Source of the DNA: an uncultured Actinomycetes bacterium
GTDB lineage: Bacteria > Actinomycetota > Thermoleophilia > UBA2241
Direction: 5' to 3'
DNA: 64,000 nt
NCBI GenBank assembly: GCA_963767005.1
Contig: CAVYCN010000002.1
Span: forward strand, 224,001-288,000
Numbering within the stretch: position 1 is the first letter of the stretch; every line of letters starts with the position of its first letter. Positions 1 through 14,252 of the stretch are shown one piece after another. Both the position numbers and the translations under genes were made by a program. The notes under the pieces were generated by a model. That model was not told where the DNA came from. It made no database searches and saw nothing but the letters and a program-made list of their open reading frames with translations.

Positions 1-1304
1 GCCAGGCGCAGCGGGGCGCCGCCGCCGGCGGCGAGGGCGACGAGTACGGCGCCGGCCAGGGCGCACAGGGCGGCGCGGCCGCGCGGCAGCGGCCGGTCGG
101 CTACGAGGCGCGCGAGCGCGCCGGCCACCAGGATCGCGAGGAACGGGATCGCCGGCGTGAGGTAGTAGATGTAGGACTGGCGGCTCGTGGCCAGCCAGGG
201 CAGGTAGAGGCAGGCGGCGAGCAGCGCGGGGGCGGTGCCGGCGAGGTCGCGCCGGCGGGCCGCGAGCCAGACCACGGCGACGAGGGCGACGATCGAACCC
301 CAAAGCAGCAGCGGGTTGCCGATCGCGACGAGACCGACGACGTCGCCGTGCGGCGCGAGCGCCCAGCGATACCAGATCGGCGTCGCGTCGAAGATCCAGG
401 TGAGCGGTCGCGAGGCCATGGTCGAGACGCCCTGCACGTTCCAGTTGAAGGTCGCCATGTAGCGCTGCAGGTGGAGCCACTGGCCGAGCGTGTGGCCGCT
501 TGCGAAGTAGTCGGCATAGCTTGCCACGTAGACGGCGAGCGGCAGGACGACGAGGCACGCGAGGGCGGCCGCGGCGCGGCCTGCCGCGCCGCCGGCGACT
601 TCGCCTGCCGGCCGCGCCCGCCGCTCGCGCACCACGGCCACGGCCACGATGCCGGCCGCGGCCACGAGGGCGAACAGGCCGGACCATTTGCTGGCGACCG
701 CGCAGCCGCCGGCGAGTCCGGTGAGCACGAGCCAGCGCGCCGGACGTCTTGGGCTGCCCGACTGCACGAAGCGCAGAGCGCAGTAGATGCAGACGGCCGA
801 CCAGAGGGCGACGAAGGGGTCGAGCACGCCGATGCGCGACTCGGTCATCAGCATAGTGTCGGCCGCGGCGAGCACGAGGGCCACGAAGGCCCAGCGCGGC
901 GCCAGGCCGAGGCGGCGGGCGAGCGGGTAGACGAGCGCGATCAGCAGCGTCCCGGCGATGGCCGCCGGCACGCGCCAGCCCCAGGGGCCGTCGCCCAGGA
1001 CCTCGACGCCGGCGGCGATCGCCAGCGTGCCGAGCTCCGGGTGGGCGAGCGAGCGGGCCGCGCCCGGCTTCCAGGGCGCCGATCCGCGCGGTCCGAGGCC
1101 GCCGTGCACGATCACGCCGGCGTCGTGTGCGTAGTAGTGCTCGTCGAAGACGTAGGTGCGGTAGACGCCGAGGTTCACAAAACGCACGGCGGCCGAGAGG
1201 GCGACGACGACGAGCACGCCCGCGAGCAGGGCGCGCGCCGACGGCGCGCGCCCGCGCGGCGCGGCCGCCGGCGTCAGGCGGACGGGGGCCGCGGGCTCGG
1301 TCAT
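1..1304 (-). CDS. Protein O-mannosyltransferase (PMT/GT39-like) paralog 2, 3' end outside the window
   Basis: Not in the ORF track. Manual translation from ATG 1304 (overlapping the upstream TGA): MTEPAAPVRL...VRFVNLGVYRTYVFDEHYYAHDA...HPELG...ESRIGVLDPF...ASKWSG...GNPLLLWG. These motifs parallel the upstream PMT. Confidence 0.85.
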   Translation of the reverse strand, partial: MTEPAAPVRLTPAAAPRGRAPSARALLAGVLVVVALSAAVRFVNLGVYRTYVFDEHYYAHDAGVIVHGGLGPRGSAPWKPGAARSLAHPELGTLAIAAGVEVLGDGPWGWRVPAAIAGTLLIALVYPLARRLGLAPRWAFVALVLAAADTMLMTESRIGVLDPFVALWSAVCIYCALRFVQSGSPRRPARWLVLTGLAGGCAVASKWSGLFALVAAAGIVAVAVVRERRARPAGEVAGGAAGRAAAALACLVVLPLAVYVASYADYFASGHTLGQWLHLQRYMATFNWNVQGVSTMASRPLTWIFDATPIWYRWALAPHGDVVGLVAIGNPLLLWGSIVALVAVVWLAARRRDLAGTAPALLAACLYLPWLATSRQSYIYYLTPAIPFLAILVAGALARLVADRPLPRGRAALCALAGAVLVALAAGGGAPLRL

Positions 1305-3022
1305 CAGATCCAGTTGCGGAACCACATGAGGTGGTAGAAGTGGGGGATCGCGATCGGCAGGTCGATGAGGATCGGCAGGAACGCGAGGCAGACGCCGGTG
1401 ACGGCGCCGGCGTAGACCCACGTGACGTAGGGCCACAGGCGTTTGGCCGGCGCCCAGAAGAACAGGCCGAGGGTGACGAGCACCGCCACGGTGATGCCGA
1501 CGGCCAGGGTCACGCGGGCGAGGTCGACCGAGAGGATGGCGGGGTCGCGCCAGAACAGCCAGTCGGCGGCCACGCCGATCTGGTACCAGAACAGCGCGAC
1601 GACCACGCAGGCGGCCGCGTAGCAGGCGGCCGCGAGCTGCCAGCGCGGCACGCGGCTCGCGGCGAGTTCGCGAAGCATGGCGGCCACGGCGAGGGCCATG
1701 AACGGCGCGACCGGCGTCATGTAGTACATGAACGACGTGCGGGTCGTGCGCAGCCAGGGCAGGTAGAGCAGGGCTACCATGATCGGCAGTACGGCGAGCT
1801 CGCGGTCGCGGCGGCGCACGGCGAGCACGACGAGGCCGACCAGGGCGGCGATGGAACCCCACCAGAGCAGCGGGTTGCCGATCGAGATGATGCCGTGCAC
1901 GCGCCCACCGATCTGCTCGTAGTAGTACCAGACGGGGCGGTAGTCGAAGATCCAGGTGTAGGCGCGCGAGGCGTAGGTGTGGGTGGCGTGGAGGCTCTCG
2001 TTGAACCACCACATCTCCTGCTGGAGCTGCCACCACTGCGAGAGCGTGTGGTGGCCGACGGCGAAGTAGTCGACGTAGCTGGCGAAGTAGAGGCCGGCTG
2101 GCAGGGCGACCAGCGACAGCGACGGCAGGCGCACCTCGGGCACGCCGACCTCGAGCGTCACGACGCCGGCGGCCGCGAGGGCGATCGCGAGCGAGACGTG
2201 CGGCAGGAGCCCGGGAGCGCGGATGCCGAGCGCGGTGAACGCGCCGCCGGCGACCACCAGGCCCACACCGGCGGCGAGCCAGGGCCAGCGCCGCCAGGCC
2301 GCGTCGGGCCGGCGCCGGTGCAGCAGGATGTAGGCGGCCGCCGCGGCGATCGCGAAGGCGCCCGACCACTTGGTGCCGAGCGCGAGGCCGCCGGCGAGGC
2401 CGCACAGCACGAGCCAGCGGGTGCGGTGCCCGCTTTGCACATAACGCAGCGCCAGGTAGACGCAGAGCACCGACCAGAAGGCGACGAAGATGTCGAGCGT
2501 GGCGATGCGCGACTGCACGATGCCGAGAAAGTCGGAGGCGGCCAGCACGAGGCCGAGCAGCGCCCAGACGGGCGGCAAGCCGAGGCGTCGGCCGATGGGG
2601 TAGACGAGGCAGAGGAGCAGCGTACCGACGATCGCCGCGACGATGCGCCAGCCGAAGGAGTGGTAGCCGAAGGCGGCCTCGCCGGCGGCGATCGCGTACT
2701 TGCCGTACTCGGGGTGCGGCCACGAGATCTCCTTGCCGGGCTCCCAGGGGTAGACGGCGGTGCCGGCGAGCGCGCCCTGCAGGATCGCGTGGGCGTCCTT
2801 GGCGTAGTAGACCTCGTCGAAGACGAGCGTGGCCGGTCGCTGGAGCTCGTACAGGCGCACCGTCGCCGACGCGATGAGGACGAGCAGGACCAGGACGACG
2901 ATCACGCCGGGGGCGCGGTCGGGACGGCGCGGCCCGTCTTCGGGAGGAGGGTCGGCGACCCGGTCGGCGACCTTTCGGGGACGCCTGGTGGGCCTGCTGC
3001 GCGGCTCTCGGGTCTTGACCAT
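1304..3022 (-). CDS. Protein O-mannosyltransferase (PMT/GT39-like, phospholipid-carrier-dependent glycosyltransferase)
   Basis: FDEVYY, HPEYGK, QSRIATLDIF, TKWSG, HTYAS and GNPLLWW motifs; polytopic membrane protein. TATAAT at 3030-3035 (minus) lies 7 nt before ATG 3022, suggesting a leaderless start. Confidence 0.88.
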   Translation of the reverse strand: MVKTREPRSRPTRRPRKVADRVADPPPEDGPRRPDRAPGVIVVLVLLVLIASATVRLYELQRPATLVFDEVYYAKDAHAILQGALAGTAVYPWEPGKEISWPHPEYGKYAIAAGEAAFGYHSFGWRIVAAIVGTLLLCLVYPIGRRLGLPPVWALLGLVLAASDFLGIVQSRIATLDIFVAFWSVLCVYLALRYVQSGHRTRWLVLCGLAGGLALGTKWSGAFAIAAAAAYILLHRRRPDAAWRRWPWLAAGVGLVVAGGAFTALGIRAPGLLPHVSLAIALAAAGVVTLEVGVPEVRLPSLSLVALPAGLYFASYVDYFAVGHHTLSQWWQLQQEMWWFNESLHATHTYASRAYTWIFDYRPVWYYYEQIGGRVHGIISIGNPLLWWGSIAALVGLVVLAVRRRDRELAVLPIMVALLYLPWLRTTRTSFMYYMTPVAPFMALAVAAMLRELAASRVPRWQLAAACYAAACVVVALFWYQIGVAADWLFWRDPAILSVDLARVTLAVGITVAVLVTLGLFFWAPAKRLWPYVTWVYAGAVTGVCLAFLPILIDLPIAIPHFYHLMWFRNWI

Positions 3023-3033
3023 TCGCGACATTA

Positions 3034-3098: not shown

Positions 3099-3695
3099 TC
3101 AGGCGCCGTCGGCCCGTTCGCGGGCCGGCTGTCGCGGTCCCGCTGCGGGCGCCGCCAGGGCGGCGCCGGCGCCGCGCATGCCGGCCGCGATCAGCCAGGC
3201 CAGGCCGACGGCGATCAGCAGGTCGCCCGGACTGAAGACGTTGGCGAGCGGCACGGCGTGAGGCAGGGCGAAGACGTCGCCGAGGAAGCCGAGATGCGTG
3301 GCCGCGCCGGCGACCTCGGAGTTGTTGTGGTGCCCGGTCGCCTCGACCAGGCCGGCGAGGCGCAGGGCGGCCCGGCTGGCCGGCATGTAGCCGCCGTTCA
3401 CGACGATCGTCACGGCGTTGCTGATGACCCCGGCGCCAAAGCAGACGACTGGCCGGCGGCGGATGTTCGCGGCCACGAAGGTCAGCAGGAGCGCATACGA
3501 GGCGAGGTGGAGCGCGATGATCGCGGCCCCCGGGAGGCGTTCGCCGAGCGGCGAGAAGGCGACGAGCTGCAGGGCCAGGGCGAGCACGACGAGCGCTGCG
3601 AGGCGCAGCGAGAGCCGCTCGAGGTTGCCGAGCGAGCCGCCGAGCAGCGTGCCGGCGAGCAGGCCGCCGACGACGGCTACGACGAGGACGAACAC
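3099..3695 (-). CDS. DUF5317-family membrane protein (putative LspA-like aspartic peptidase)
   Basis: GTG 3695 overlaps the end of the HD-GYP gene. MFVLVVAVVGGLLAGTLLGGSLGNL...SNAVTIVVNGGYMP...LGDVF...VFSPGDLLIAVG motifs are typical of DUF5317. Confidence 0.8.
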   Translation of the reverse strand: MFVLVVAVVGGLLAGTLLGGSLGNLERLSLRLAALVVLALALQLVAFSPLGERLPGAAIIALHLASYALLLTFVAANIRRRPVVCFGAGVISNAVTIVVNGGYMPASRAALRLAGLVEATGHHNNSEVAGAATHLGFLGDVFALPHAVPLANVFSPGDLLIAVGLAWLIAAGMRGAGAALAAPAAGPRQPARERADGA

Positions 3696-4996
3696 GACTC
3701 GCGCGGGGTCGAAGGCAGCGCCACGAGACGGGGCTTGGCCGGGTTGCGCCAGCAGCCGATGAAGGCGTCGACGAGATCGGGGTCGAACTGGCGCCCGGCG
3801 CCGCGGCGCAGCTCGGCGAGCGCGATCTCCGACGACAGGGCCGCGCGGTACGGACGATCGGACGTCATGGCGTCGTAGGCGTCGGCGACGGTGATGATGC
3901 GCGCCCCGAGCGGGATCTGCGTGCCGGCCAGGCCGTCGGGGTAGCCACGCCCGTCCCAGCGCTCGTGATGGTGGCGGATGTAGTCGCGCCCCTTGCGGTA
4001 CATGCTGAACTGTCCGGCGAGCTCGCTGCCGTCGGCCGGATGGGCGATGATCGCGCGGCGCTCCTCTTCGGTCAGCGACGCCTGCTTGTAGAGGATGCGG
4101 TTGTCGGTCGCGATCTTGCCGAGGTCGTGCACACGCGCGGCCGAGATGACGAGGTCGATCTCTTTGCGCGGCAGGTCGAGGGCGCGGGCGATCTCGCCGG
4201 CGTACTCGGCCACCCGCAGGGAGTGGGCGTAGGTGTACTCGTCGCGCTTGTCGACGGTGTCGGCGAGCAGGGCGAGGGCGTGGTCGGTCTCGCTCTGCAG
4301 GTTGGCGTAGAGCTTGAACCCCGTGTAGATGACGAGGATCAGGAACGGGAAGTAGAGGATGTTCCAGGGGCTGTCCTGGTAGGCGAAGGCCAGCAGGGCG
4401 CCGAGCGGTGTCATCGACACGTAGAGGATGCCCATCTCGCGGAACGACGCCGTCCATTCGTGGAAGAAGGAGCGGCCCGAGAGCGTGATGATGCCGGCCA
4501 CCAGGGTGTCGTTCACGAGCAGGAAGATGGCCGCCGAGACGACGATCGCGGGCGCGTCGCGGCGCAGATCGACGGGGCCGGACACGGCGAGCAGCCGGTA
4601 GACCACGGCGGCGAGCGCCGAGGTGAGGCAGACCTGGCTGCTGTTGAACAGGACGCGGCTCCAGTGGCGCCGCGAGAGGACGAGGTCGCTGCCCACGACG
4701 CCGCCCATGGCGACGACGCTGGCGAAGGCCGGTCCGTAGAGGATGGTGGCCGCGAAGGCCACGGTGAGTGACAGCGACATGCTGCCCTCGAAGCTCGACG
4801 CGACCGCCCAGCGTTCGCTCGCGATGGCCGCGCCGAGGAGCACGACGAGGTCGGTCCAGTGGTGGCTGGGGAACGTGTGGAAGGTGGCGGCCAGGAGGAG
4901 GGCCGCGCCGGCGGTGACGCCGCCGATGTACGTTGCCACCGCAGGCGACACCCGGGTCGGGGTGGTGGGTGCCGCCTGCGGTGGCTGCTCCGTCAT
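3677..4996 (-). CDS. Membrane-anchored HD-GYP c-di-GMP phosphodiesterase (multi-TM N-terminal sensor plus HD-GYP domain)
   Basis: About 230 aa of hydrophobic N-terminus, followed by HSLRVA, HDLGK, HHERWDGRGYP and ADAYDAMTSDRPYR motifs. Confidence 0.92.
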   Translation of the reverse strand: MTEQPPQAAPTTPTRVSPAVATYIGGVTAGAALLLAATFHTFPSHHWTDLVVLLGAAIASERWAVASSFEGSMSLSLTVAFAATILYGPAFASVVAMGGVVGSDLVLSRRHWSRVLFNSSQVCLTSALAAVVYRLLAVSGPVDLRRDAPAIVVSAAIFLLVNDTLVAGIITLSGRSFFHEWTASFREMGILYVSMTPLGALLAFAYQDSPWNILYFPFLILVIYTGFKLYANLQSETDHALALLADTVDKRDEYTYAHSLRVAEYAGEIARALDLPRKEIDLVISAARVHDLGKIATDNRILYKQASLTEEERRAIIAHPADGSELAGQFSMYRKGRDYIRHHHERWDGRGYPDGLAGTQIPLGARIITVADAYDAMTSDRPYRAALSSEIALAELRRGAGRQFDPDLVDAFIGCWRNPAKPRLVALPSTPRESCSSSS

Positions 4997-5054
4997 GATT
5001 CAGATGTCAGGCTGGCTTGCTGCCTGCGCCGGATCGACGCGTGCTACGCGCGCG

Positions 5055-5147
5055 TCAGTCCCACTTGAGCCAGGCGCCGCTCGTGACGGCGAGCGCCACG
5101 ACCAGGGCCAGCGTGATGACGACTTTGTTCGTGAGGATGCTCTTCAT
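5055..5147 (-). CDS. 30-aa signal-peptide-like small protein MKSILTNKVVITLALVVALAVTSGAWLKWD
   Basis: Manual translation; strong SD (GGAGAGGGAG) upstream of the ATG; paralogous to 5194-5289. Confidence 0.8.
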   Translation of the reverse strand: MKSILTNKVVITLALVVALAVTSGAWLKWD

Positions 5148-5193
5148 GTTGGATCTCCCTCTCCCAAGGTGACGAGTCGCGTGCGCCCGAGTG

Positions 5194-5289
5194 TCAGCTC
5201 CACTTCTTGAAGGCGCCGCTCGCGAGCGCGAGTGACACGATCAGCGCCACCATCGCGAGCTTAGGGTAGGTGCCTTTCAGCAACCTCAT
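5194..5289 (-). CDS. 31-aa signal-peptide-like small protein MRLLKGTYPKLAMVALIVSLALASGAFKKWS
   Basis: SD (AAGGGAGGG) just before ATG 5289; shares the C-terminal LA(L/V)(A/T)SGA[FW]xKWx motif with 5055-5147. Confidence 0.8.
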   Translation of the reverse strand: MRLLKGTYPKLAMVALIVSLALASGAFKKWS

Positions 5290-5385
5290 GAGCCCTCCCT
5301 TCGTGCGTCGGTCCCCACCAGACCGGTCGGGCCGTCCGTGACGTTGCCAGGCGTCGTGCGGACGGTCATGTCCGAGTGCTTCTGG

Positions 5386-5413
5386 ATATCGGCACCGGCT
5401 TTGCCGTTCTTTA
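5386..5413 (-). promoter_or_regulatory. Sigma28 (FliA/SigD/WhiG)-type promoter
   Basis: The minus strand reads TAAA-gaacggcaaagccggt(16)-GCCGATAT, matching the sigma28/SigD consensus, ~100 nt upstream of the first small ORF. Confidence 0.75.
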
Positions 5414-12959: not shown

Positions 12960-13036
12960 CGGGACGTGGCGCAGCCTGGTAGCGCACCTGCTTTGGGAGC
13001 AGGGGGTCGGCGGTTCGAGTCCGCCCGTCCCGACCA
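12960..13036 (+). tRNA. tRNA-Pro (TGG)
   Basis: Cloverleaf CGGGACG...CGTCCCG-ACCA with anticodon loop TT-TGG-GA; -10 TATACT at 12942. Confidence 0.96.
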
Positions 13037-13055
13037 GGCATCCCGTCGCATGCGA

Positions 13056-13132
13056 GCGGGAGTAGCTCAGTTGGCTAGAGCATCAGCCTTCCAAGCTGAG
13101 GGTCGCGGGTTCGAGGCCCGTCTCCCGCTCCA
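13056..13132 (+). tRNA. tRNA-Gly (TCC)
   Basis: GCGGGAG...CTCCCGC-TCCA with anticodon loop CT-TCC-AA. Confidence 0.96.
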
Positions 13133-13165
13133 ATTCGATCTTCCGTCCGTTCCGTCACCGCGCGT

Positions 13166-13242
13166 GCGCCCGTAGCTCAGCCGGATAGAGCGTCGGACTT
13201 CTAATCCGAGGGTCGCAGGTTCGAATCCTGCCGGGCGCGCCA
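13166..13242 (+). tRNA. tRNA-Arg (TCT)
   Basis: GCGCCCG...CGGGCGC-GCCA with anticodon loop CT-TCT-AA. Confidence 0.96.
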
Positions 13243-13530
13243 GTAGGTCTGCGCCTGACCACATCGGCCGTAACCTGAGAGGAGCCGTTGGCGCCTTGTC
13301 TCCTGGCAAGGCGTCCGCAGACGCATCACCGGGGCGCCGGCGTGAGAGCCGCCCACCGGTTCGTGTCGGGGCCGCGCGCGCGCGATTCCCGCTCGCGTGA
13401 CTCGATGCCCGAGCCACAGTCGCAGACGTCGACGGGTTACACCATCGCCTCCGAGGGGAGGTTGAGCAGTGACGGTGACGCGACGAGCTCGTTCGGCGGG
13501 CGGCGTCCCCGGCCCCACGAGAGGCCCACC

Positions 13531-13830
13531 ATGATCCTCATGCTGCAGCACACCGTGCGCGACTACGAGGCCTGGAAGCCCGTCTTCGACGAGCACGAAG
13601 GCACGCGCGCCAAGTACGGCTGTCTTGGTCACACGACCTACCGCGCCACGGACAAGCCGAACGACTTGACCGTCCTGCTCAGGTGGGAGTCGCGCGAGCG
13701 CGCCGAGGAGTTCCTGCACGATCCGTCGCTGGCCGATGCCATGCAGCGTGGCGGCGTGGTCAGCGAGCCGCACGCGACGTGGGTGGACAAGAGCGATACC
13801 GTTACCTACGCGGCACGCAAGGCCGCCTGA
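13531..13830 (+). CDS. Small dimeric alpha/beta-barrel (cyclase/ABM-like) protein
   Basis: HTVRDYEAWKPVFD...AMQRGGVVSEP pattern; GAGAGG SD before ATG 13531. Confidence 0.7.
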   Translation: MILMLQHTVRDYEAWKPVFDEHEGTRAKYGCLGHTTYRATDKPNDLTVLLRWESRERAEEFLHDPSLADAMQRGGVVSEPHATWVDKSDTVTYAARKAA

Positions 13831-13843
13831 CTTCGACCGGCTT

Positions 13844-13882
13844 CAGGCCCGCCTGCGTGGTGCACACCCGCAGGCGGGCCTG
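13844..13882 (+). terminator. Hairpin terminator
   Basis: caggcccgcctgcg...cgcaggcgggcctg inverted repeat after the stop codon. Confidence 0.6.
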
Positions 13883-14063
13883 TCTGCGTGCTACCAAAGT
13901 CCACCGCGAACGCGCGGCACCGGAGCGCGGCAGAGGGTCGAACGCCAAGCGGCGTCGCCCCCGATACCGGTCTTCGGCATCTTCGCGGCGGCCGGGCGAC
14001 GTGCTATCCTTACTCGCCGCTTTCCAAGGCGAGCGGCGTGCCACAAGGGTCGACGGATACCGT

Positions 14064-14140
14064 GGTGGGGGTAGCTCAGCTGGTAGAGCTCCAGGTTGTG
14101 GCCCTGGCGGTCGCGGGTTCGAATCCCGTCCCTCACCCCA
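14064..14140 (+). tRNA. tRNA-His (GTG)
   Basis: G(-1)GTGGGGG...CCCTCAC-CCCA with anticodon loop TT-GTG-GC. Confidence 0.95.
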
Positions 14141-14165
14141 GCACCTCCCGCGTCCCGAAACGCCT

Positions 14166-14252
14166 GCGGGTGTGGCGGAACTGGTAGACGCGCTAGACTT
14201 AGGATCTGGTGGGCCAAAGCCCGTGGAGGTTCAAGTCCTCTCACCCGCACCA
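14166..14252 (+). tRNA. tRNA-Leu (TAG)
   Basis: GCGGGTG...CACCCGC-ACCA with a long variable arm and anticodon loop CT-TAG-GA. Confidence 0.95.

Follow-up and report, generated by a model that had tools for sequence, protein, structure and literature searches.

The window analysed here is a 64,000-nt stretch of contig CAVYCN010000002.1 from an uncultured bacterium of the Thermoleophilia (assembly GCA_963767005.1). Near its start lies a compact minus-strand cluster in which two micropeptide genes are followed by a gene for a membrane-bound MASE9-HD-GYP protein and a gene for a membrane protein of the family DUF5317, the last two overlapping by 19 nt (Table 1). The original prediction had described a five-part unit consisting of a sigma28-type site, a 31-aa open reading frame (ORF), a 30-aa ORF, an HD-GYP gene with intact motifs and an overlapping DUF5317 gene, and every one of these parts is present in the sequence. 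The cluster is reminiscent of a peptide-signalling module, with cyclic di-GMP (c-di-GMP) as its probable output.

Table 1. Coordinates of the cluster features within the window
Feature	Position	Strand	Details
sigma28/WhiG-type promoter site	5386..5413	minus	-35 TAAA at 5413-5410, 16-nt spacer, -10 GCCGATAT at 5393-5386
5′ leader with hairpin conserved at genus level	5290..5380	minus	without Rfam family
micropeptide 1, 31 aa	5194..5289	minus	tag G-A-F-K-K-W-S, basic class; purine-rich ribosome-binding site 5294-5300
micropeptide 2, 30 aa	5055..5147	minus	tag G-A-W-L-K-W-D, hydrophobic class; ribosome-binding site 5155-5165
MASE9-HD-GYP protein, 439 aa	3677..4996	minus	MASE9 and HD_5 profile matches
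DUF5317 membrane protein, 198 aa	3099..3695	minus	96 bits; GTG start; five predicted membrane helices; candidate peptidase

Both small ORFs have a purine-rich ribosome-binding site (RBS), a basic N-region and a hydrophobic core, and end in a tag of the form G-A-x-x-K-W-x. They are members of a conserved peptide family with a signal-peptide-like build that ends in G-A-x-x-[KR]-W and is spread over several phyla. A profile of this family was built from 19 DUF5317 regions of relatives and the best 80 of 526 confirmed DUF5317 stretches, which left 94 loci after the window's own locus and five duplicates had been dropped; the record titles of the best 80 name Actinomycetota, Chloroflexota, Bacillota, Bipolaricaulota and others. 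The cut-off of 12 bits was reached by 3 of the 27,849 candidate small ORFs in the 3.44-Mb genome, namely the two in the window and one paralog. Among close relatives, the variable columns at codon positions 1/2/3 number 14/8/20 for ORF1 (7 sequences) and 9/9/21 for ORF2 (6 sequences). This third-position bias, together with the RBS and the cross-phylum conservation, indicates that the small ORFs are conserved genes.

Conservation within the peptides peaks at the C-terminal tag, the hydrophobic helix being poorly kept (mean column identity 34 %). An invariant Ala and a near-invariant Gly directly follow the helix, the tail beyond the Trp comprises 0 to 3 or more residues, and none of the 79 peptides of the training loci has a Cys at the tag positions. 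In each of the 21 tandem pairs (the window's included; mostly kin, from about four lineages), the residue two places before the Trp is K, R or H in one peptide and hydrophobic in the other; 13 of 39 single peptides are basic at this place. A fair inference is that the basic and hydrophobic classes are two distinct signals. Many micropeptides (L037, L039, L041, L046, L047, L054, L081, L084, L086 and L091) have a second, N-terminal Lys-Trp(-Gly) motif that mirrors the C-terminal tag. The genome contains five candidate micropeptide genes and one DUF5317 gene. A second tandem pair, one peptide basic and the other with a longer hydrophobic tail, lies behind a weaker sigma28-like site at G000:C2:654565-654790 (L137); no sensor or DUF5317 gene was recognised nearby, and the two may be orphan signals served in trans.

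The held-out set consists of 52 DUF5317 loci, one per further genome (59 DUF5317-positive of 151 genomes searched, minus the window's own and six unpublished genomes). With the profile unchanged, a peptide was found at 14 of the 52 loci, comprising 14 of the 29 with a MASE9-like gene and 0 of the 23 without. Small ORFs of this kind near DUF5317 genes of other genomes had been anticipated by the original prediction, and they are found both here and at 60/94 training loci (79 peptides of at least 12 bits), a count that is circular, these loci being the source of the profile. Many of the 34 peptide-negative training loci are short contigs or Chloroflexota loci in which DUF5317 stands alone.

A looser detector, which was adjusted after part of the data had been inspected and is hence not independent, placed a peptide upstream of the first MASE9-like gene at 39/53 training loci and 17/28 held-out loci, and at 4/7 other MASE9 loci. 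The controls returned 6/2000 random windows, 0/140 other genes and 2/26 motif-matched c-di-GMP frames of this genome, both of the latter being MASE9 genes. Directly upstream of each of the genome's three MASE9 genes lies a candidate peptide source; for the third, this is a micropeptide without Trp. These counts suggest that the peptide belongs to the MASE9 sensor first: it tracks that sensor and not DUF5317 alone. Both families occur in 44 of the 151 genomes, DUF5317 only in 15, MASE9 only in 23 and neither in 69, so that MASE9 is found in 44/59 DUF5317-positive vs 23/92 DUF5317-negative genomes. This table counts related genomes that are not independent of one another, includes the six unpublished genomes and depends on an insensitive MASE9 profile. 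DUF5317 and MASE9 matches also fall in the same 2 of 14 control genomes. That peptide and sensor are functionally linked in one way or another is very likely.

The module is not confined to one output. In a scan of 90 neighbours, all taken from a single sequence cluster, HD-GYP, GGDEF-EAL, GAF-GGDEF and HD-GYP-GAF-GGDEF were the outputs. Degradation of c-di-GMP, the output originally proposed, is therefore not the only one, as GGDEF-EAL and HD-GYP-GAF-GGDEF sensors are found on the same module elsewhere. In the cultivated Euzebya pacifica (DY32-46), an unannotated ORF of the micropeptide kind precedes a gene for a membrane GGDEF-EAL protein and a DUF5317-EAL fusion; Kineosporia sp. R_H_3 is another cultivated carrier. 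At G000:C10:139238-142291 (L138), a MASE9-HD-GYP gene and a divergent major facilitator superfamily (MFS) gene each follow a sigma28-like site and flank a 25-aa micropeptide ORF that has no Trp. Chloroflexota DUF5317 loci without a MASE9-like neighbour (L027, L029, L030, L043, L060, L063, L065, L069, L073, L075, L085, L094, L095, L097 and L100) were also seen, and at some loci of this kind downstream peptides carry a Glu-Ala-Gly-x-Arg-Trp tag.

A second type of gene appears to supply similar peptides to the same sensors. The genome's MASE9-SpoIIE gene follows a gene for a secreted subtilase that ends in tandem Trp pentapeptides. In a survey of such subtilases, 35 of 151 genomes matched and 30 loci were returned, of which 25 were examined, the 5 from unpublished genomes being left out. 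By eye, all 25 have a Trp-repeat tail, and a MASE9-like gene is next in 20 and is not next in 3, while 2 end at a contig edge. Some of the tail units, ATKW and ARRW among them, are similar to the micropeptide tags. These tails have no membrane anchor, which points to a short soluble ligand, and we infer that a short soluble peptide is the common currency of both routes. At the genome's own locus (G000:C2:589357-593691, L136), the subtilase and MASE9-SpoIIE genes are followed further on by one for a STAS protein, so that this type of sensor is here combined with an output of the partner-switching kind.

The 439-aa protein matches MASE9 (PF20972) N-terminal to its signalling domain with 34.8 bits (curated cut-off 24.3) and HD_5 with 119 bits. 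An HD dyad at residues 290-291 and HHERWDGRGYP at 343-353, which fits the HHExx[DN]GxGYP motif, identify the C-terminal domain as a predicted c-di-GMP phosphodiesterase. Tyr occupies the position that we take to be that of the third-metal Glu, which would suggest the binuclear HD-GYP type. The membrane domain (residues 1-233) was modelled with a predicted local distance difference test (pLDDT) score of 85.7, and the model has the predicted fold of the S-components of energy-coupling factor (ECF) transporters. In a VIA search, ECF S-components and the related BtuM fill the top 15 rows (best row Z 16.6, root-mean-square deviation 2.9 Å, 160 aligned residues), and the first unrelated row has a Z of 7.0; matches to S-components have Z 12-16.6 over 150-187 residues at 5-15 % identity. 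S-components also rank first in Foldseek (best E 0.008, probability 1.00, template modelling score by target 0.70), with no row at E 0.001, and an Atlas search gave no usable match. As S-components bind small ligands in an outward-open pocket, a receptor role is plausible, though not specifically for a peptide. The earlier suggestion that this membrane domain is the receptor thus gains support from the fold and from the tight peptide-MASE9 linkage, but the fold does not say peptide. A complex prediction for MASE9 residues 16-233 with full-length micropeptide 1 scored 0.01 without folded controls, which speaks neither for nor against binding.

The DUF5317 protein is a candidate peptidase, judging by its sequence. 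Its model (pLDDT 90.8) consists of five long helices. Across 147 sequences, D140 is kept in 145 and D158 in 144, and N77, G89 and N93 are invariant; many of the invariant residues are Asn, Gln or Gly. According to the positive-inside rule, D140 and D158 are predicted on the outer membrane face. Fusions of DUF5317 to an MFS transporter, seen at 11 loci, recall peptidase-exporter fusions, and those to sensor proteins, seen at 3, allow a role as co-receptor. Against a 24-sequence profile of LspA, it gave a 37-column local match with a score of 26 (the highest of 60 column shuffles scored 19.9), in which D158 pairs with the Asp of FNxAD and D140 lies within one column of the other conserved Asp. 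At E ≤ 1, the only Pfam match was DUF5317, PF01252 not being among the matches; Foldseek returned no match at E ≤ 0.001 and no LspA row was shown; VIA returned no match with Z ≥ 8, its rows being generic helical hairpins that span residues 18-80 and barely cover the C-terminal half; and sequence searches gave one chance-level match in the PDB and no usable match in Atlas. On these results, we do not class DUF5317 with LspA and keep it as a candidate peptidase; the genome encodes an LspA of its own. The role of processing enzyme originally assigned to DUF5317 is favoured by the two near-invariant aspartates and the MFS fusions, but lacks a clear fold match and is weakened by the peptides that precede MASE9 genes in genomes without a DUF5317 hit.

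Upstream of the micropeptides, the promoter site fits TAAA-N16-GCCGATA, a form of the sigma28/WhiG consensus followed here as in PMC8325347. The pattern occurs 7 times in the genome; pilin genes, the second MASE9-HD-GYP gene and the MFS gene divergent from it are among those preceded by a site. In relatives, both boxes are kept and the spacer varies. With up to one mismatch, the site is present at 12/60 peptide loci, 11 of these being among the 14 loci of the same family. The only FliA/WhiG protein over the cut-off is WhiG (277 bits), a single-motif RsiG is encoded as well (59.9 bits), and RsiG-family matches occur in 37/41 related genomes. As no flagellin match was found in this genome, which is rated 100 % complete, we rejected a flagellar reading of the site. 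The sigma28-type promoter first proposed is therefore present but limited to this family, and it probably belongs to the WhiG rather than the flagellar regulon. A sigma-70 promoter scan returned 0 sites.

The sections of PMC8325347 used here describe binding of single-motif RsiG to c-di-GMP and WhiG, a c-di-GMP-dependent RsiG-WhiG switch in Thermoleophilia and Rubrobacter, and predicted WhiG promoters before pili and c-di-GMP enzymes in Rubrobacter. At 5 of 9 Chloroflexota loci scanned, a c-di-GMP-I riboswitch at the peptide genes takes the place of the sigma28 site, and peptide output thus appears, from these sequence elements, to be tied to c-di-GMP by two separate routes. No riboswitch reached the gathering score in the window or at 14 other loci. 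The leader hairpin in the window has a weak consensus energy (-5.9 kcal/mol), no Rfam match and base segments that are conserved within the genus and were not seen at more distant loci. At G000:C2:500797-502088 (L140), two pilin-like genes are preceded by a sigma28-like site as well as a c-di-GMP-I-GGC riboswitch (63 bits), amounting to double c-di-GMP control.

The reading that we favour, a serious possibility that falls just short of probable, is that the micropeptides are cut, probably by DUF5317, that the released Trp peptides bind MASE9 and tune its enzyme, and that WhiG provides feedback in this lineage. The two micropeptides would be inserted in the membrane and cut near the Gly-Ala junction; the released Trp-containing peptides of 4-6 residues would bind the predicted S-component-like pocket and tune the attached predicted phosphodiesterase. 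In this lineage, the cluster would be transcribed by sigma-WhiG, with RsiG holding WhiG inactive only at high c-di-GMP. If the peptide switches the phosphodiesterase on, c-di-GMP would fall, WhiG would be freed and more peptide would be made, an autoinducing loop that would also take in the pilin genes, which follow a similar site. With WhiG and RsiG encoded and no flagellin hit, a c-di-GMP feedback loop is likely. The reading draws on the observed gene content, conservation, linkage and motifs and on predicted folds and topology; translation, cleavage, the identity of the cutter, binding, the direction of the effect and feedback are what it would add.

A wider proposal, which we advance tentatively as possible though doubtful, is that MASE9 would be a peptide-receptor family derived from the vitamin-binding S-component fold. 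It would read short Trp peptides from two routes: in one, DUF5317, as a membrane aspartyl peptidase of a new class, would act on the products of hidden signal-peptide-like genes, and in the other, subtilases would be secreted and shed their repeat tails. Paired peptides would be two signals, a quorum-type loop would run through c-di-GMP, RsiG and WhiG in Thermoleophilia, and the system would cross phyla.

Several observations weigh against the reading that DUF5317 releases Trp peptides for MASE9 under WhiG feedback. In the held-out set, 23 of 52 DUF5317 loci lack both a MASE9-like gene and a peptide in the stretch fetched, and the looser detector finds a peptide before the MASE9 gene at 6/18 loci of genomes without a DUF5317 hit (94-98 % complete; 21 of 23 such genomes were fetched). 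Several peptides ahead of MASE9 genes end without Trp, and the small-residue rule of the housekeeping signal peptidase I is also satisfied by the S-G-A and A-S-G junctions. The probability of the DUF5317-LspA profile match is 16 % (30 % for the C-terminal half), and solved S-components bind vitamins or metals, so that the fold favours no peptide over a metabolite. Finally, the sigma28 site was not found at most loci outside the window's family, and the RsiG of this genome carries His where the motif calls for Gln.

Some of the same evidence can be read in other ways. The micropeptides might act uncut, as small regulatory membrane subunits of the MASE9 sensor whose Trp tag plugs the outer pocket and which DUF5317 removes or resets, much as small membrane proteins such as MgrB act on PhoQ. 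A single membrane-length hydrophobic helix with a very short tail, Lys-Trp as a typical membrane-interface anchor, the position of the peptide genes directly upstream of the sensor gene and the variable tail length after the Trp are all consistent with such subunits. We nonetheless regard this as rather unlikely, given that the invariant Ala and near-invariant Gly after the helix resemble a cleavage site, that the anchorless Trp-pentad tails of subtilases pair with the same sensors (20/25) and that the helix is poorly conserved. Alternatively, the peptides may be released and sensed by MASE9 but cut by signal peptidase I or another protease, with DUF5317 degrading, modifying, exporting or co-binding them. 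This would account for peptides with MASE9 in nearly complete genomes without a DUF5317 hit, for the fusion of DUF5317 to sensor proteins (at 3 loci and in Euzebya pacifica) and for the many invariant Asn, Gln and Gly residues; yet the two near-invariant outward aspartates stand in an LspA-like local arrangement, the Pfam profile may miss divergent DUF5317 genes, and one DUF5317 for five candidate micropeptide genes could act in trans, and we consider it unlikely that another protease is the cutter.

It is distinctly improbable that MASE9 senses a vitamin-like or aromatic metabolite and that the small ORFs are accessory (assembly factors or transcript regulators) and carry no signal. The S-component fold, the 12 of 18 MASE9 loci in genomes without DUF5317 that are peptide-free by the looser detector and the riboswitch or hairpin leaders that precede the ORFs in some lineages all agree with a metabolite sensor, but the short Trp tag is shared by two unrelated gene types, both placed directly upstream of MASE9 genes, the two tag classes are kept in every tandem pair, which an attenuator would not need, and some peptide pairs lie far from any sensor gene. 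That the small ORFs are functionless chance frames is scarcely credible in view of their cross-phylum conservation with RBS and third-position bias and the 3/27,849 of the genome-wide control.

The cluster is flanked by genes for an acetate-uptake transporter and a protein O-mannosyltransferase. The O-mannosyltransferase-like gene (window 1304-3031, minus strand) lies directly downstream and is likely its own unit; such a gene is likewise found downstream in several relatives of the same family. Further along the window, positions 12960-14249 (plus strand) hold five ordinary tRNA genes. In some assemblies (L023, L024 and L051 (G008)), the module looks broken or split, with the sensor gene missing or in two frames and DUF5317 in two pieces, which may reflect assembly error or decay.

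ComS/ComR, Rap-Phr, agr and ComCDE, like the SHP/Rgg pheromones of streptococci as presented in the sections of PMC3150281 used here, resemble the cluster in having small hydrophobic pro-peptide genes that adjoin a receptor gene, an active C-terminus, two similar peptides side by side and likely autoinduction. In contrast to the cytoplasmic RRNPP receptors of SHP/Rgg, ComRS and Rap-Phr, reached through Opp, and to the histidine kinases of agr and ComCDE, the receptor here would be an S-component-like membrane domain joined to a c-di-GMP enzyme. The candidate cutter has no relation to Eep or AgrB, and a conserved Cys is missing from the tags. No agr/ComCDE-type histidine kinase or AgrB/ComA-type processor is present at the cluster, whose two large genes encode MASE9-HD-GYP and DUF5317 (the 90 neighbours scanned come from one sequence cluster), and no RRNPP-type cytoplasmic tetratricopeptide-repeat receptor adjoins it, a search that covered the locus flanks and not the whole genome. 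The ECF S-components (RibU 5KBW, 4HZU chain S, FolT, ThiT and CbiM) have a predicted fold in common with the MASE9 domain, which differs in its low identity to them, its fusion to a signalling enzyme and its proposed peptide ligand; this relation may already stand in domain databases. Like DUF5317, LspA (PF01252) is a small membrane protein, and its C-terminal Asp...Phe-[Ser/Asn]-x-x-Asp segment aligns locally; DUF5317 differs in the missing Pfam match, the profile probability of 16-30 % over 37 core columns, its five predicted helices and its N-terminal half, and the micropeptides lack the lipobox Cys of LspA substrates.

The domain architecture of the 439-aa protein is that of the MASE9-HD-GYP proteins TM1467 of Thermotoga maritima and HdgA of Streptomyces venezuelae (Galperin and Chou, bioRxiv 10.1101/2021.11.05.467447; Al-Bassam et al. 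PMC6205966); the sections of these two sources used here name no ligand and mention neither DUF5317 nor peptides. hdgA mutants had no developmental phenotype, and missing activating signals were suspected (PMC6205966). The WhiG systems described so far share with this one WhiG-type promoters before pilin genes and c-di-GMP enzymes and proposed feedback loops; target-table supplements aside, the text consulted describes no peptide input. Our full-text literature search, which left supplements and most subscription journals outside its scope, found no description of the module, no paper on DUF5317 and nothing on the pairing of subtilases with Trp repeats or on S-component-type sensors. The module is real, widespread and, as far as these searches reach, undescribed. 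It would work like peptide signalling without having any part in common with agr, RRNPP or LspA-based systems.

For a widespread sensor domain, these data name candidate ligands that can be synthesized and a fold that explains how binding could occur, and a peptide signal may be the missing activator suspected for Streptomyces HdgA/HdgB. The unstudied DUF5317 family, which may be a new class of peptidase, is offered a candidate substrate. c-di-GMP is a switch for pili, biofilm and development; if the proposal is true, a peptide signal would act straight on c-di-GMP in many lineages of Actinomycetota, Chloroflexota, Bacillota and Bipolaricaulota, and peptide communication across phyla, wired directly into c-di-GMP, would be an undescribed kind of bacterial signalling.

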